From an uncultured Gemmatimonadales bacterium (GTDB lineage Bacteria; Gemmatimonadota; Gemmatimonadetes; Gemmatimonadales; Gemmatimonadaceae): DNA of 64,000 nt. Every line of letters begins with the position of its first letter. Within the stretch, counting starts at the first letter, position 1. Below the pieces are notes generated by a model. It was not told the DNA's origin. It searched no databases and was given only the letters and a program-made list of their open reading frames with translations. Positions 4,018 through 16,403 of this stretch are shown here, in pieces. Location of the stretch: assembly GCA_963701965.1 (NCBI GenBank), contig OY969695.1, positions 1,696,001 to 1,760,000 of the forward strand, written 5' to 3'. Position numbers and translations under genes: made by a program.

Positions 4018-5331
4018 ATGGCACCCTCCAACGCCCTCCCCAAGGACTGGACGACGGCGGGACGCATCCCGTCGTACCAGGATTGGCTCACCGAGACCAA
4101 CCGCGGCGCGTTCAAGCCGCGTAGCAAACTGCTGCAGCGCGTCGATCAGGCGATCAAGCAGTGGAATCTCACGCCGAACGCCGACACGACCATCACGCTC
4201 TCCAATGCGATCGACGTGTGGCGCCGGTCCAATCCCGAGTGGGAGAAGCGCAACAAGACGGGCACCATCAGCAAGACAATGTCGGCGCTCGCCCACTTCA
4301 AGCGACTGGATTTCCACGCCAAGTTCACGTCGGCCGACGTCATGGCGCTGCAGTGCATCCGCGAGGAGCGCGAGGCACTCCTCCAGCGGTTCATCGGCAA
4401 GGACGTCACGTTCAAGGGCAAACACGTCCGCGCCAAGCTCAAAGAGGCGGTCGACGACTTCAAGTCGGACGTGCGCGCCGCGCCGGGCTACGTCCAGAAG
4501 CTGACGCCCCAACAAGCCGTCAACGACCTGCAGGGCGCCCTCACGAAAATGGCGGCGGCGATCTTCTGCGTCGACAACCTGACGGTGATCGGCGACATCA
4601 TGAGCTACATCTCGCCGCTCATCGGCCAGTGCGCGGCCAGCGCGGCGCCGTTCGTCTCCAACATCACGGGCATCTACAACTGCTGCAGCACGCTGGCGAT
4701 CGCCTGCAAGAAGGTGTACGAGGAGAACGATGCCTGGAAGCACGTTCCCTACGCTATCGATACGGGCACGCCCAGCGCGGCATTCAAGGGCCTGTCCAAG
4801 TGCATGGAGCGGGAGACCAACAGCGCGCTGGCCAGCGCCGCAAACGCCAGTGTCTCGTTCGCGGCCCAGACGGCGCTCATCTTCGCGGACGGCGGCGTGT
4901 TCAGCGGCCCCGCCGTCGGTCTGGCGAGCTGGATGGCCAGCGTTTCCCAGACCCTAATGTTGTTGGCCATGGAGTGGCGGGCGACGAACAAGTACAACGA
5001 GTTGATCGCCGCGGCCAAAGCCAGCCAGGACAAGCTCGATTGGGACGTGTTCAAGGTCTACCCGCTCATCGGCTGCTATTACCTGGTCATCGGCAACACC
5101 AGCGACATCATTCCGATCGACTACTTCGGGGAGCGGGACTGGATGACGCGGTTCGAGCGGGTCAAGCGCGACCACTTCGATAGCATCTACGACAAGGCCT
5201 GCGACCTGATCGACGCCTCGCCGTGGGAGATCATCGGCCTCCCCAAGCGGAAACAGGGCACCAGCCTGACGCTGGGCAGTCTCGCCAGCTTCGCCTTCGA
5301 CCAGGGCGCGGGAATAGTCGGCCAGGCCTGA
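4018..5331 (+). CDS. Hypothetical protein (437 aa)
   Basis: Long ORF with strong GC3 coding bias; no family I recognise; no signal peptide. Confidence 0.8.
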   Translation: MAPSNALPKDWTTAGRIPSYQDWLTETNRGAFKPRSKLLQRVDQAIKQWNLTPNADTTITLSNAIDVWRRSNPEWEKRNKTGTISKTMSALAHFKRLDFHAKFTSADVMALQCIREEREALLQRFIGKDVTFKGKHVRAKLKEAVDDFKSDVRAAPGYVQKLTPQQAVNDLQGALTKMAAAIFCVDNLTVIGDIMSYISPLIGQCAASAAPFVSNITGIYNCCSTLAIACKKVYEENDAWKHVPYAIDTGTPSAAFKGLSKCMERETNSALASAANASVSFAAQTALIFADGGVFSGPAVGLASWMASVSQTLMLLAMEWRATNKYNELIAAAKASQDKLDWDVFKVYPLIGCYYLVIGNTSDIIPIDYFGERDWMTRFERVKRDHFDSIYDKACDLIDASPWEIIGLPKRKQGTSLTLGSLASFAFDQGAGIVGQA

Positions 5332-9972: not shown

Positions 9973-10852
9973 TCAGGCGCCGATGCCTTCCGAACCGCGG
10001 GGTACGTGTTGGTCGGCGGGCGTGCCGGCGACCGGCAGGGGAACCGCGATATCGGTGCGGACGAGTCCCGCCGCCACGCGGGCCAGGAAATCGTGGGGCT
10101 CGAGCTGGGTGGCCAGGGACGAGGGCAGGAACCCCGATACCGCCCGGACTTCGTTGGCCAGCCCGCGCGCCGTGGCGTACCCAAGCTTGGCCGCCACATC
10201 GCGCACGCGGGTCGCGCCGGGCGGACCCTGCGACAGGTAGTGATAGGCGCGGACGACGCGCGCCGCCCGCAGCAGCACCCATCCCGACAGCCACCCGGCG
10301 CGATCCAAGGCCTCGTGCAGTCGGCGGCGGTGACGGACGCCGGCCAGCCGGGCGAGATCTTCCACCGTGGTGATCGTATCGGGTGTGCGAAAGAGCTCTT
10401 CGACCGCCCGCGCGACGGCGATCGGCAGCCGCGCCAGCGCCGGACCAAGTCGGGTGAGCAGGATGTCGGCCAGCGCGTCCGCGGGGAGGCTCTCCAGATA
10501 CGCGCGGAACTGCATTGGCGCATCGTCGAAACCCTTGAGCACGAGGTGGCGATGGCCGCGCATGGCGAGCGCCATTCTGGGCCCGCATGGCCGCGGGGGA
10601 CACCGTCGTGTAGCTCACGACGTGGACGGACTCGTGGCGTCCCAGCACGCCGACCAGATCACCGAGCTGCCGGCCGCCCACGAGCGCGGGGTCGACGACG
10701 GCGATATCGACGCGCGAGAGGCGGAGCGCGGCGTCGAGTTCCTCGACCGTGCGGACAACGCGCACGACGTGGCGGCGTCCGGGCACCGCGCGAAACGATG
10801 CCATGAGATGATCGGGGAGCAACGCGACAATCTGCAGGCGGTCCTGCGGCAT
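9973..10852 (-). CDS. Regulator with degenerate receiver-like N-domain and AraC-type HTH; +1 indel at ~10576
   Basis: N-part VVRTVEELDAALRLSRVDIAVVDPAL...VVSYT (REC-like). C-part TVEDLARLAG...RVRDVAAKLGYATARGLANEVRAVSG (double HTH). The two frames join at CAG-A-ATG. Confidence 0.75.
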
Positions 10853-10985
10853 CACGTTCAAAGCGCACCGCCCACGCACGACTGTGCCGCGCCCCAGGAC
10901 GTCATCCCAAAACGCCCTCGCGCACCGCACTGTGGACGGGTCCAAACCACGTCGCGTCAACCACTTAAATTATTTGGAGCGCTTA

Positions 10986-11111
10986 ATGTTACGCCGCCTT
11001 TCGATCCTTGCTGCGACCGTCGCCGCGATGACCCTCGCGGCCTGTGCTTCCACCACCGCCCCTACTGCTTCCTGCGGCGGGACCTACGCCGGTGGCTCCA
11101 CGCACTGCTAA
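10986..11111 (+). CDS. 41-aa lipoprotein/peptide precursor MLRRLSILAATVAAMTLAAC-ASTTAPTASCGGTYAGGSTHC
   Basis: GGAG RBS 6-7 nt before the ATG and an AT-rich upstream tract. Classic type II signal peptide (RR, hydrophobic core, lipobox LAA-C). Hairpin immediately after the stop. Confidence 0.75.
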   Translation: MLRRLSILAATVAAMTLAACASTTAPTASCGGTYAGGSTHC

Positions 11112-11121
11112 AACGCACGCC

Positions 11122-11154
11122 GTTGGCGCCGGAGTCCTAAGCTCCGGCGCCGAC
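11122..11154. terminator. GC-rich hairpin between the convergent peptide and TPR genes
   Basis: GTTGGCGCCGGAG-tcctaag-CTCCGGCGCCGAC, a 13-bp stem with one G:U pair; no strong U-tract. Confidence 0.5.
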
Positions 11155-12405
11155 TAACTCGGCGCTCAAGTGCTCTATCGCGTCGGCGACGCGCAAGGCG
11201 GCATTGCCAAGGTCCGGCTGCGCCTGCGGGGCGCTTGATTCTTCCTCGGGCATCGCGTCACGAGCCGCTTCGGCTTCGATTAACCGATCATTCAATTGGT
11301 GGCGCTCCGCAAGCACAATCGCCCGGTCAAACGCGGCACGCGCCTGCTCGTCGCGGCCGAACCGGCGGCAGCCCTGCCCAACGCCGAGCTGATAGTCCAC
11401 CGCGAGACGCGGAGCGAGCGCTTCACCCGCCAGCGTACGGCGGTACCGCTCGAACAACGTCTCCGAGCCAGTCCTGATCGCCAGCTCCATGAGATTGAGC
11501 GTCGCGATCGAGCGGAGAGTCTGATCCTTCGTGCGCGCCTGCAGGAGGAGTAACGCGCGACGAGCGGTGTCTCGCTTGCCGACATCCGCGAAGGCGAGCG
11601 CCAAGTCGTTCAGTACGCGGTCCTGCATGCGCTCTTCACGGTGATGTTCCAGCGCGGCATGCAAAAGCGTAAACCCGCGATCGAAGTCGCTCCGACGCAT
11701 GGCCACGACGCCCTGCTCGTGGAGCGCCAGCGCCATGACGTCGGTCACGGAAGGCACCGCATCCACGACCGGCTTACACTCGACCACGATCTCGCCCAAG
11801 AGTTCATCCGCGCGCGGCAGGTTGCCGCGGCGCAGCACGACGAGCGCCAAACCGTAACGAGACATCAATTCGGTGAATCGTGCGCCGGACTCGTCCGCCA
11901 TCGCCCGCGCCGTCTCGAGCGCCGACTCGGCGTCGACGAAGTTACCAGCCGCGATCGCGCACATCCCGAGTCGCTGCCACGCGTGGGGCACAAGCTCGAG
12001 CTCATTGTCGGACTCGGCAAAGCTCAGAAACGTACGATAGACGTCAATGGCCAGCTCTGATTCACGCTGGTCATGCAAGAGCGCCGCGTATGCAAGGACA
12101 TGCGCAGACACGACCGAGCGACTGCGGCCCCACGACTGGGTGACGGCGTTCACGATCGCGACGAGCGAGTTCTGGATCGGACCTTCCGGCATCTCCCCAA
12201 TCGCCTTGCGCACCGCCGCAACTTCGGTGGGGCGCGGCGCGATCCAGCTGTGCAGCGCTTCAGCCCACTTGTCGACGAGGCGAACCGTGACAAACCCGGC
12301 CGTCGTGGGCTTCCAGCGCGGATCGTCGACATGCATAGACCCAAGCACCTCGAGATAAGCGAGGTGCTCTCCGCGGAGGCGAGTCGGTCGACCCGTGGTC
12401 TGCAT
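11137..12405 (-). CDS. Cytoplasmic tetratricopeptide-repeat (TPR-like) protein
   Basis: Repeated helical units AWQRLGMCAIAAGNFVDAESALETA, GLALVVLRRGNLPRADELL, ALHEQGVVAMRRSDFDRGFTLL, VLNDLALAFADVGKRDTA, QLGVGQGCRRFGRDEQARAAFDRA. No signal peptide or HTH. Start could be 12435. Confidence 0.8.
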   Translation of the reverse strand: MQTTGRPTRLRGEHLAYLEVLGSMHVDDPRWKPTTAGFVTVRLVDKWAEALHSWIAPRPTEVAAVRKAIGEMPEGPIQNSLVAIVNAVTQSWGRSRSVVSAHVLAYAALLHDQRESELAIDVYRTFLSFAESDNELELVPHAWQRLGMCAIAAGNFVDAESALETARAMADESGARFTELMSRYGLALVVLRRGNLPRADELLGEIVVECKPVVDAVPSVTDVMALALHEQGVVAMRRSDFDRGFTLLHAALEHHREERMQDRVLNDLALAFADVGKRDTARRALLLLQARTKDQTLRSIATLNLMELAIRTGSETLFERYRRTLAGEALAPRLAVDYQLGVGQGCRRFGRDEQARAAFDRAIVLAERHQLNDRLIEAEAARDAMPEEESSAPQAQPDLGNAALRVADAIEHLSAELVGAGA

Positions 12406-12608: not shown

Positions 12609-13664
12609 ATGACGCGCAAGCGAATCCTGCTCGGGACCGCCCTCGCACTGCTCCTGGGCGCCGTAGCCTGGCTCGTTGGTGGCGGATCTGGCGACCTGGT
12701 TCTCACCGGTATCGTGACTACTGATGACGTGATCGTCAGCCCGCAGGTTACAGGTCAAATTGGACAACTGCTCGTCGATCAGGGAGACTCGGTCACGCCG
12801 GGCGAGCTCGTCGCTCGACTCGTGCCTGCCGAACTCCAGGCCGATCGCGCGTACTACGCGCATAGCGCCGAAGAAGGGGCCGTACGCGTCCAGTCGAGCG
12901 AAACATCGCTGCGCTTGCAGCAAATGCAAACCAATGATCAGATCAGCCAGGCCGAAGCGTTACTGGCGGCTGCCGTCGCCCAGCAAGCGGAAGCGGCGGC
13001 CAATCTCGACAACGCCAAGCTCACGCGCGATCGCTACGAGGCCCTGGCCAAGACCGGCGGCGTCGCCAAGCAAGAGCTCGATCAACAAGAGAATGGGTAT
13101 CAGGTCGCGGTCGCCCGCGCCAATGCCGCCGACAAACAAGTCGCGGCCCAGCGCGCGGCGCTGAGCATGGCCCGCGCGGCGGCCGAACAGGTCTCGATCA
13201 AGCGCAGCGACCTGTACATGGCGCGCCAGCAGCAGGCCGCCGCGACCGCCCAAGAGACCAAGGCCGACGTCCGCCTGGGATACAGCGAGCTCCGCTCGCC
13301 GATCGCGGGCATCGTCGATGTCCGCGCCGTGCGGAACGGTGAGGTCGTCAACCCGGGTCAACCCGTCGTGACGCTGATCAACCCGGACGCGCTCTGGATT
13401 CGCGCCGACGTCGAGGAGACCTACATCGATCGCGTCCGCCTGGGCGATCACCTGACCGTGCGGCTTCCGTCGGGCGCCACCCGCCAGGGCACGGTCTTCT
13501 ATAGAGGTGTCGACGCGGGCTTCGCGACGCAACGCGACGTGAGCCGCTCCAAGCGCGACATCAAGACGTTCGAGATCCGACTCCGCGTCGACAACCGCGA
13601 CCGCCTGCTGGCGGTCGGCATGACGGCGTACGTGCTCCTGCCGTCGCGCGTGACGCACGGATGA
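12609..13664 (+). CDS. HlyD-family membrane fusion (periplasmic adaptor) protein
   Basis: N-terminal anchor, lipoyl halves (VSPQVTGQI...QGDSV; LRSPIAGIV...GEVVNPGQPV), coiled coil. Confidence 0.93.
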   Translation: MTRKRILLGTALALLLGAVAWLVGGGSGDLVLTGIVTTDDVIVSPQVTGQIGQLLVDQGDSVTPGELVARLVPAELQADRAYYAHSAEEGAVRVQSSETSLRLQQMQTNDQISQAEALLAAAVAQQAEAAANLDNAKLTRDRYEALAKTGGVAKQELDQQENGYQVAVARANAADKQVAAQRAALSMARAAAEQVSIKRSDLYMARQQQAAATAQETKADVRLGYSELRSPIAGIVDVRAVRNGEVVNPGQPVVTLINPDALWIRADVEETYIDRVRLGDHLTVRLPSGATRQGTVFYRGVDAGFATQRDVSRSKRDIKTFEIRLRVDNRDRLLAVGMTAYVLLPSRVTHG

Positions 13665-14647
13665 ACGCCGTCGACGTCCGGCAGATCACGAAGACCTTCG
13701 GCACGTTCACGGCGGTCGACGCGATCTCGTTCACCGTCGCGCCGGGCGAGATCATGGGTCTCTTGGGCCCCAACGGCGCCGGCAAGTCGACGCTGCTCCG
13801 GATGCTCACGACGCTCATCATCCCCACATCGGGGACGGCGATCATCGCCGGGGCCAATGTCGTCGCCGCGCCCGACGACGTGCGCCGCGCGATCGGGGTC
13901 ATCCCCCAGGCCCTCACCAGCGATCTCGAGCTCTCGGCCCGCGAGAATCTCACCATCTTCGCGAAGCTCTACGGCGTCCCACGCGAGAAGCGGCGGCGTT
14001 TGATCAACGAGCTGCTCGCGGCCGTCGAGCTGACGGAGTGGGCCGACAAGCCGGTCAAGCAGCTCTCGGGCGGCATGCGCCGCCGCGTCGAGATCGCCCG
14101 CGGCCTCGTCCACGAGCCGCGCATTTTCTTCCTGGATGAGCCGACCACCGGACTCGATCCGGTGTCGCGCACGGCGGTGTGGGAGATGCTGCGTCGCATC
14201 AAGGCCGAACGGGACCTCACGGTCCTGCTGACGACGCACTATATGGACGAAGCGGACAAGTTGTGCGACCGCATCGCGATCGTGGACCACGGGAAGCTCA
14301 TCGTGCTCGACACACCCTTGGCCCTCAAGGACGCCGTCGCCGGCGCCAACACGCTCGAAGTGAGCTTCCAGTCGGCGCCCGATGACTGGACGGCGGAGTT
14401 GGAACAGCTGCCCGGCGTCGAGCACGTCGTGGGCGAGGGCGGCCTTTTTCGGATCACCTCGCATTCCGGCCCTGCCACGACTCAAGCCGTACTCGAGGCC
14501 GCCGCCGACCGCGGCGTCGTCGTACAGTCGCTGGGCGTCTCCAGTACCACGCTGGACAATGTCTTCCTGCATTTCACCGGACGCCAGCTGCGCGACGCGT
14601 TGCAATCCGCGACCGCCGCCGACAGTCCCTTCATGATGCGCCGCTAG
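13661..14647 (+). CDS. ABC transporter ATP-binding protein (DrrA/ABC-2 type)
   Basis: GPNGAGKS, LSGGM, FFLDEPTTGLD, TTHYMDEA. Confidence 0.95.
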   Translation: MNAVDVRQITKTFGTFTAVDAISFTVAPGEIMGLLGPNGAGKSTLLRMLTTLIIPTSGTAIIAGANVVAAPDDVRRAIGVIPQALTSDLELSARENLTIFAKLYGVPREKRRRLINELLAAVELTEWADKPVKQLSGGMRRRVEIARGLVHEPRIFFLDEPTTGLDPVSRTAVWEMLRRIKAERDLTVLLTTHYMDEADKLCDRIAIVDHGKLIVLDTPLALKDAVAGANTLEVSFQSAPDDWTAELEQLPGVEHVVGEGGLFRITSHSGPATTQAVLEAAADRGVVVQSLGVSSTTLDNVFLHFTGRQLRDALQSATAADSPFMMRR

Positions 14648-15762
14648 TGCAACGCGTCTGGGCCATCGTCGAACGCGACCTCCGGCGGTTCCGCCGCAGC
14701 CCGGCGCTCATCGTCATGTCGTTGGTCATGCCGCTCGTGCAGCTCGTGATCCTGGGCTACGCCTTCGGCGGCACGGTCAAGCATCTCAAGGTGGGGCTGC
14801 TCGATCAGGATCGCGGCGTGCAGTCCGTCAAGCTGCGCGAGCTGTCCGGCGCGATCGCGGCCAACGCCAGCACATTCGAGACGGTCCCCTACCACGACCA
14901 GGGCTCGGCTCTGTCGGCGCTGCGCAACGGACAGGTCAACGCCGTCCTCGACATTCCGCCCGAGTTTTCCCGCCGCGTCCTGGCCAAGGATGCCCCACGC
15001 GTCGCGCTGATCGAGGACAACACCGACAACTTCGTCTCGGGCGCGCTGGCGTCGAGCATATCAGGGCTGGTCTCGGCGTACAACGACCAGCAGAACGATC
15101 CGGTGCGCGTCCCGACGCAGACGTCGCTCGATCTCGTCGAGGTCTATCCCTACGTCCCGTACATCCAGTACCTGCTCGCCGGTTCGACGGTCATGGCGAT
15201 CTTCATGATGGTCATGATCGGCGGCGGCATCATCTTCATCAATGACAAGGCGCGCGGGCTGCACGAGGGATACCTGGTCACGCCGATCACCAAGCTGGAG
15301 CTCATTCTCGGCTTCAACATCTCGGGCGCGATCAAGGCCGTGCTGGCGGGATTCGTCCTCATGACGATCGGGTCCCTGATCGCGGGCATCCCCAACCCGT
15401 TCGCTCCCATGAGGTTGCTGCGGCTCCTCATCGTCGTGATCGCCACGTCGACCGCGCTGGTCAGCATGATGTTCATGATCATGGTGCGCATGAGCGATCC
15501 GTTGATTCCACGGGCGCTCTTCGGCGTGCTCAATACGCTGCTGTGGTTTCCGAGCGGGGCCATCTACCCGCAGCAGGCGTTCCCGGCCTGGATGCGTGCG
15601 ATCGCCATCGTCGACCCGTTCACGTATGGCGTGCACGCGCTCAAGAGTCTGCTGCTCAAGAACACGGGATTCGCGGCCATCGGGGGTGACTTGTTATATC
15701 TGACCATCTTCACCGTCGTGACCATGACCATCGCCACTCGACTCTTTCGGCGGACGCTGTGA
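14647..15762 (+). CDS. ABC-2 type permease (YbhR/S-like)
   Basis: One N-terminal TM, extracytoplasmic loop, five C-terminal TMs; SGAIYP...P.W...DPFTY motif. Confidence 0.92.
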   Translation: MQRVWAIVERDLRRFRRSPALIVMSLVMPLVQLVILGYAFGGTVKHLKVGLLDQDRGVQSVKLRELSGAIAANASTFETVPYHDQGSALSALRNGQVNAVLDIPPEFSRRVLAKDAPRVALIEDNTDNFVSGALASSISGLVSAYNDQQNDPVRVPTQTSLDLVEVYPYVPYIQYLLAGSTVMAIFMMVMIGGGIIFINDKARGLHEGYLVTPITKLELILGFNISGAIKAVLAGFVLMTIGSLIAGIPNPFAPMRLLRLLIVVIATSTALVSMMFMIMVRMSDPLIPRALFGVLNTLLWFPSGAIYPQQAFPAWMRAIAIVDPFTYGVHALKSLLLKNTGFAAIGGDLLYLTIFTVVTMTIATRLFRRTL

Positions 15763-16403
15763 GCCCGGCCGTCGCCGACGTCGGGCCGCGGGGAGAAGTC
15801 ACGCGCGAGCGTCTCCTCGAGACCGCGGTGCAGCTCTTCGCGGAGCATGGCTTCGCCAAGGTCACCGTCCGCGACATCTGCCGCGGGGCGGACGCCAATG
15901 TCGCCGCCGTGAACTATCATTTCGGCGACAAGTTCGGGCTGTACATGGCCGTGCTGCGATTGGCGGTCGACGAAATGCGCAAGGTCAGCGATGTCACCAT
16001 GCAACCGGCGCCCGGCAGCTCGGCCGAAGACCGCCTGCGGCACTACATCCGGATGCACGTGACGATGCTGGTGCACATCGATCCCGCGTCGTGGATTCTG
16101 CGGCTCATGCTCCACGAGATGGCGGAGCCGACCAGCGCCGCGCCGTGGATCGTCGAGCACGGGTTCCGGCCGCGATTCCGCTACCTGTCAGGCGTCCTGG
16201 CCGAGCTCCTCGGGGCCGACGAGTCGGACCCGCGCGTGCTGCGCTGCGCGATCAGCGTGCAGTCCCAGTTTCTCTTCTGCAAGCCCGACAGGTTCCGGGC
16301 GATCGCCTTTGGCGACGCGATGCCCAACAGCGACGCCGAGATCGACACGCTGGTCGATCACATCGCCGCCTTTTCCCTCGCCGGCATTCGCGCCATCGCC
16401 TAG
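15759..16403 (+). CDS. TetR-family regulator with CecR/DUF1956-type C-domain
   Basis: TRERLLETAVQLFAEHGF...VRDIC...NVAAVNYHFGDK; C-terminal HIAAFSLAG. Confidence 0.9.
   Translation: MSPAVADVGPRGEVTRERLLETAVQLFAEHGFAKVTVRDICRGADANVAAVNYHFGDKFGLYMAVLRLAVDEMRKVSDVTMQPAPGSSAEDRLRHYIRMHVTMLVHIDPASWILRLMLHEMAEPTSAAPWIVEHGFRPRFRYLSGVLAELLGADESDPRVLRCAISVQSQFLFCKPDRFRAIAFGDAMPNSDAEIDTLVDHIAAFSLAGIRAIA

Follow-up and report, generated by a model that had tools for sequence, protein, structure and literature searches.

A conserved lipopeptide, TPR protein and AraC-type regulator cassette in Gemmatimonadota and its possible Rap-Phr-like function

The window analyzed here is a 64,000-nt stretch of contig OY969695.1 (positions 1,696,001 to 1,760,000; assembly GCA_963701965.1) from an uncultured Gemmatimonadales bacterium, and all positions refer to it. 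It contains three neighboring genes. A prolipopeptide gene of 41 aa (10986-11111, plus strand) is convergent with a minus-strand gene for a 422-aa tetratricopeptide repeat (TPR) protein (11137-12405). It is divergent from a minus-strand regulator gene, which is read in two frames: an N-terminal receiver-like part (10577-10852) and a C-terminal part with the double helix-turn-helix (HTH) of the AraC type (9973-10575). The cassette is real and conserved; its mechanism is plausible and unproven, and the regulator of the window is broken as assembled. Homologs were assigned to Gemmatimonadaceae or Gemmatimonadales. Since LpxC, LolA and Lgt are encoded in the genome, the host was taken to be a diderm with lipoprotein machinery.

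To measure linkage, loci were chosen by the regulator alone. Of 150 matches listed, 110 were taken (the top 30, and 80 spread over genera and scores); six were excluded as coming from this genome or from genomes in the profile, and seven for too little upstream DNA. Among 79 strong matches (E<1e-55), 74 had a TPR gene upstream on the same strand with a divergent lipopeptide gene between, two had the TPR gene only, and three had neither. The 18 weak matches gave 4, 1 and 13, respectively. Control windows held a lipopeptide open reading frame (ORF) at 2/97 and 0/97 loci, so the linkage is far above chance.

The same arrangement, a TPR gene and a divergent lipopeptide gene upstream of the regulator, was found at 58 of 60 held-out loci. 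These remained from 80, all from metagenome-assembled genomes labeled Gemmatimonadota or 'bacterium', after removal of 14 short and six duplicate loci. Thus, TPR homologs are tightly linked to small peptide ORFs and receiver-AraC genes across Gemmatimonadota. The lack of linkage by which a sequence-only reading of this DNA had proposed to judge itself wrong was not seen.

Of 301 genomes of the phylum, 124 had the TPR family, with six candidates scored in each genome, and 249 had regulator-like matches. In one family (f1), a hand count among related, non-independent genomes found the TPR gene in 38 of 39 with a best regulator match below 1e-50 and in 3 of the 31 others. The trio also occurred outside the order, in family f7 (L158, L161, L164 and L165), with a GAF-like domain ahead of the TPRs. 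In family f4, the TPR and regulator genes were adjacent in other gene orders. One unpublished genome (G012, source of locus L024) counts once in these tallies, and no claim depends on it alone.

A lone receiver gene with the DD, D, T and K motifs followed the regulator, mostly overlapping its stop codon, in 59/78 and 56/56 trios. It was missing beside the window regulator and its congeneric orthologs. The three genes themselves form a conserved, often-duplicated unit.

The 41-aa ORF carries the ribosome-binding site and the lipobox first noticed in it: GGAG (10976-10979, plus strand; GGAG or GAGG is retained in orthologs) and LAA-C20, with Cys20 (11043-11045) as the predicted lipidation residue. 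It also has a basic-hydrophobic leader (10986-11042). Overall, 19 disjoint close pairs of relatives gave a dN/dS of 0.28; for the last 11 codons the value was 0.30. This showed that the ORF is a translated gene under purifying selection. The peptides of 78 relatives were 38-67 aa long and followed one order: leader, lipobox, a Thr-Ala-Pro-like linker (76/78) and a variable tail. The linker is common to long lipoproteins of this genome. Residue +2 was never Asp in the 78 peptides.

After its linker, the window peptide has Cys30 and Cys41 around a 10-residue loop (11073-11108). The Cys loop proposed from the sequence is thus present here, but 46 of the 136 peptides tallied (78 + 58, all selected for the lipobox Cys) lack it. 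Two Cys residues beyond the lipidated one were found in 57 + 33 peptides, one in no peptide, and none in 21 + 25; the loop was 6-12 residues long, mostly 7-8. Since the extra Cys residues are paired or absent and never single, we interpreted them as an optional disulfide.

Exact tandem units were uncommon in the tails (1/78 and 1/58 tallied peptides, plus L011, L158 and L161). The tail is an exact heptamer repeated three times in L158 and twice in L161. Such repeats are informative though uncommon, because intragenic repeats mark the Phr and NprX signals (PMC5199041, available portion). In variant L034 the tail was kept and the usual lipobox Cys was absent. With repeats and paired Cys both in the C-terminal tail, the suggestion that the signal is cut from the lipoprotein leader, as in enterococci, was not borne out.

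The TPR protein matched Pfam TPR_12 (E 1e-9) and TPR_2, over the cut-off, and its model was all-helical (pLDDT 92.7), with no HTH, as read from the sequence, and no export signal. We regard it as a candidate cytoplasmic peptide receptor. Its orthologs begin at the same Met. Residues 15-130, seen in the whole-protein model and alignment, form a conserved helical N-terminal region. No sequence homology to Rap was detected; fold matches included RapH-Spo0F, and the TPR fold is generic. The stop codons of the TPR and peptide genes are 25 nt apart in the window (median 34 nt in 75 relatives).

Among 20 relatives, the TPR family gave 7-27 matches per genome in the genus of the window and one in other carriers. 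This genome has 17 TPR-family loci. A convergent lipopeptide gene, each with a different tail, was found at eight of them (16 loci examined), and a regulator lies beside three of these eight pairs. At one further locus, a TPR gene and a regulator are coupled and the peptide is missing. The TPR and peptide genes have been co-duplicated.

Some members carry additional domains. A Cys/His-rich N-terminal domain of about 60 residues, C-x(3-7)-H-x-W-x(5-8)-CC-NG, was seen on five paralogs of this genome (L004, L007, L008, L009 and L013) and in 12 of 148 TPR representatives (P0047, P0077 and P0089 among them). It had no match in Pfam, and may be a metal-binding sensor. In P0078 (644 aa), an ECF sigma factor (regions 2 and 4) is fused ahead of the TPRs; the same cluster has unfused members of 412 aa. 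By eye, ECF-like genes lie near paralogs L009, L010 and L014. At paralog locus L003 (2050-3280; G000:C1 near 3564046-3564500), the place of the tiny peptide is taken by a lipoprotein of about 140 aa, whose end lies 30 nt from the TPR stop codon; it is cupredoxin-like by eye and has a Gly-rich loop bounded by Cys.

The regulator was described from the sequence as a receiver-like/AraC protein. In intact orthologs, both a receiver-like N-terminal fold and an AraC domain were found; in this assembly the gene occupies two frames. Orthologs L017-L020 are single frames of 285-287 aa, and DNA comparison with L017-L019 showed one extra base at the junction of the two parts (10575-10577, minus strand). 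A comparison of 129 genes with congeneric genome G001 showed 12 (about 9%) to be split by frame changes in this single-contig assembly. The count is rough: it did not pick up the regulator, and some of the splits may be real. At this rate an assembly error is the likelier cause, and the window regulator is probably intact in the living cell. A real frameshift, with the copy decaying or served by a paralogous regulator, was considered rather unlikely. The extra base itself, a weak operator-like repeat and four intact close regulator paralogs elsewhere in the genome are in its favor, but both halves are still 52-72% identical to the orthologs and free of stop codons. It would concern this copy only and is compatible with any mechanism. 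Findings of broken genes elsewhere in assembly G000 need the same caution, given the 9% of compared genes split.

The C-terminal double HTH is of the AraC/XylS type: the family profile matched AdpA (E 2e-15), and Pfam HTH_18 matched the window part (E 2e-4) and orthologs L051 (47.7 bits, over the cut-off) and L019 (31.0 bits, below it). A canonical response-regulator receiver has an acidic pair after beta1, a phospho-Asp, a Thr/Ser and a Lys. The window protein keeps the beta3 Asp-Pro and beta4 Tyr-Thr and lacks the beta1 acidic pair. In 75 regulators, the beta3 Asp was kept in 97% and the Thr in 74%, Arg stood at the Lys position in 46%, and the metal-binding acidic pair was present in 3 and absent in 72. 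Neither the window protein nor its orthologs gave a Pfam match to Response_reg. The domain is therefore not a canonical receiver; it is probably there for docking, not as a phosphorylation switch.

The region between the peptide and regulator starts contained a direct repeat at a fixed position. The best repeat had a period of 21 bp in 49 of 73 regions, and a matrix with the consensus TGtCgCAAAAacGCCC twice fitted 59 of the 73. The match ended a median of 76 nt ahead of the peptide start, with a TAnnTT-like box about 20 nt further on. All 58 held-out regions scored above 8, and no shuffle did. XylS and FoxR bind direct repeats of the same period ending at -35 (PMC9804782, available portion), and we infer that this repeat is the binding site of the regulator. 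Of 53 loci, five also had the repeat ahead of the TPR gene, and in two it pointed away from that gene.

In the clade of the window a different, weaker repeat stands at the same place; of 12 regions tested, 8 reached P<=0.02 (uncorrected) at the 21-bp period. The window copy (10865-10882 and 10886-10903, plus strand) is imperfect, with 10/15 matches and P of about 0.02 by shuffling, and does not fit the phylum-wide matrix. Its type recurs in the same place in L017, L018, L030, L033 and L037. This suggested a clade-specific candidate operator for the peptide promoter.

Searching 10 genomes by pattern turned up 13 sites, spread over nine of the genomes; the reversed control found none. Nine were at the cassette, a circular result since the same genomes trained the matrix. 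Only four lay elsewhere, so the regulon looks small. The top genome-wide match to the common operator (G000:C1:1669771, minus strand; score 23) is directly followed by TTGACA; downstream there is a tRNA-like remnant, and no gene stands out as the target of the site. Extra sites in relatives (L201, L202, L198, L110 and L153) stand ahead of genes divergent from TPR genes and of genes labeled by eye as coding for a lipoprotein, an IS30-like transposase and a secreted SH3-like protein.

We interpreted the cassette as a Rap-Phr-like autoinduction loop, the best reading, with a probability of about one half. The AraC regulator would switch on the lipopeptide gene through the 21-bp direct repeat, and the product would be lipidated and exported. 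Its variable tail would be cut loose and re-imported through an Opp/Dpp-type permease. Until the imported tail is bound, the TPR protein is predicted to keep the regulator inactive; binding would then release the regulator. The regulator would also activate the TPR gene, supplying negative feedback, and TPR-peptide pairs without a neighboring regulator may feed the same or other regulators. ComA drives rapC-phrC. The model for the loop was the Rap anti-activators of ComA together with Opp import (PMC3601965, PMC6334282; available portions). As to the sign of TPR action, an anti-activator was mildly favored over a co-activator.

The idea of a Rap/Phr-like cassette came from the sequence-only reading. 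Linkage, coding selection, repeated tails and the AraC-type repeat at the peptide promoter all agree with it; a leader-derived signal is the part left unsupported. Several points weigh against the loop. Co-variation of peptide core and TPR pocket, expected of a receptor-ligand pair, was weak overall, and single pairs fitted. Between L018 and L020, 16 of 74 TPR substitutions fell in 36 groove positions of 371, and the tail changed. Between L039 and L034, none of 31 did, and the tail was nearly unchanged. Import of a lipid-anchored ring is unexplained, and the lone receiver is an alternative target for the TPR protein.

By that route, the TPR protein would be a Rap-type phosphatase or sequestrator acting on the lone canonical receiver, in the manner of Spo0F, and the receiver would control the receiver-like AraC protein. 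The frequent receiver gene after the regulator, RapH-Spo0F among the fold matches and the beta3 Asp kept in the regulator are all in line with this. At the window locus and its congeneric orthologs, however, the receiver is gone and TPR and regulator remain, and 72 of 75 regulators lack the metal-binding pair. We considered this route improbable. It was also thought unlikely that the TPR protein reads the cell's own peptide, as unexported precursor or as a tail recycled from the periplasm, so that it would act as a timer or as a gauge, either of lipoprotein export or of the state of the envelope. The predicted lipid anchor and generic lipoprotein start of the precursor, the constant avoidance of Asp at +2, the extra operator sites that L201 and L202 have ahead of genes for a secreted protein and a lipoprotein, and the absence of an exporter or protease linked to the cassette would suit such a gauge. 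A plain gauge needs no private code, though, and tails differed between species in otherwise near-identical peptides (L018/L019 versus L020) and among the eight paralogs of one genome; tandem tail copies fit a released signal.

The lipopeptide might, on the other hand, be only an output: a surface tag or envelope lipoprotein under the regulator, with the TPR protein a chaperone or a regulator sensing something else. An operator directed at the peptide gene, a generic TPR fold, weak tail-pocket co-variation, 9 of 17 TPR loci here without a tiny peptide, and members with extra Cys-rich or GAF-like N-terminal domains would all accord with that. But a regulator is lacking next to five of the eight pairs of TPR and peptide genes in this genome, so the peptide travels with the TPR gene and not with its activator, and the repeats and paired Cys are located in the tail. 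We held this to be quite improbable, and the autoinduction loop was retained as the best reading.

Measured against the five-point RRNPP/RRNPPA signature as set out in the available portion of PMC10075063, the cassette fits three points outright: a propeptide of 10-100 aa (41 aa here; 38-67 aa in relatives), a receptor of 250-500 aa with TPRs (422 aa; TPR_12/TPR_2), and adjacent receptor and propeptide genes (25 nt between stops). Export fits at the relaxed level only: strict export by Sec and signal peptidase I is not what the lipobox motif predicts, and lipoprotein tags are admitted only at the relaxed level. For the fifth point, a matured peptide that returns to the cytoplasm and binds in the TPR groove, the loop makes this prediction and the co-variation was weak.

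In the best reading, at the even odds given above, the cassette would work like Rap-Phr, and we claim no membership in the Rap family. The nearest known branch is that of the Rap-Phr anti-activators of Bacillota (RapC/RapF on ComA, pLS20 Rap on Rco; RRNPP/RRNPPA). Here, by contrast, the host is a diderm, the TPR protein has no detected sequence homology to Rap, and the precursor is a lipoprotein of the signal peptidase II type with a predicted disulfide ring in two thirds. The peptide gene lies tail-to-tail with the TPR gene, and the unit encodes its own regulator, AraC-type with a degenerate receiver. The Rap phosphatases that act on Spo0F (RapA, RapB and RapH) have a parallel in the lone receiver accompanying most cassettes, but here the receiver is encoded within the cassette, and is absent at the window locus.

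Enterococcal sex pheromones are cut from lipoprotein leaders, and their receptors are PrgX/TraA. They share with the cassette a lipoprotein-type precursor and a cytoplasmic helical-repeat receptor. In the cassette, by contrast, a dedicated precursor of 38-67 aa apparently carries the information in its C-terminal tail, and the candidate receptor lacks an HTH. The AraC/XylS activators XylS at Pm and FoxR at foxA also use a pair of direct half-sites that are 21 bp apart and end at the -35 region (PMC9804782, available portion). The present regulator differs in having a receiver-like rather than ligand-binding N-terminal domain, and its apparent target is the peptide gene.

No description of the cassette was found in the literature searched, which left out most subscription papers; the RRNPP_detector tables could hold hits outside Bacillota. 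This is likely a self-amplifying peptide circuit; within that literature, circuits of the kind were otherwise known from Gram-positive bacteria alone. Published accounts treat cytoplasmic peptide receptors as a trait of Bacillota (PMC10075063, PMC9765709; available portions). If the loop is true, a comparable circuit exists in a diderm phylum that is abundant and has hardly been studied, and its lipoprotein precursor must cross two membranes. The parts are few: three small genes, one defined operator and a short peptide that can be synthesized. The question of diderm peptide signaling could therefore be tested in a laboratory host, and more than a hundred putative natural receptor-peptide pairs are available. 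More doubtful is a phylum-wide, allele-specific peptide communication system of diderms that arose independently of RRNPP. Lipid-anchored, often disulfide-ringed propeptides would reach neighbors free, on vesicles or by contact, and cytoplasmic TPR receptors would gate AraC or sigma regulators; the 7-27 receptor matches per genome in one genus would then be many parallel channels.

A hairpin between the convergent genes (11122-11154), noted from the sequence, is real (z -6.05; 0/200 shuffles). Its right arm, however, consists of the last TPR codons, overlapping the stop codon, and it has no T-run. It was not general among relatives, with z<-2 in 23 of 72 and a median z of -0.75.

The trio had been placed between unrelated genes. 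The flanks are indeed functionally unrelated to it, but the same flanking genes occur in congeneric genome G001, so the cassette is a resident locus. Elsewhere in the window, a 437-aa ORF of atypical composition (4018-5331, plus strand) has no Pfam or NCBIfam match. The TPR start is adjoined by an efflux operon (12609-16403, plus strand) of HlyD-family, ABC ATPase, permease and TetR-like genes, and the same neighbors were found in G001.
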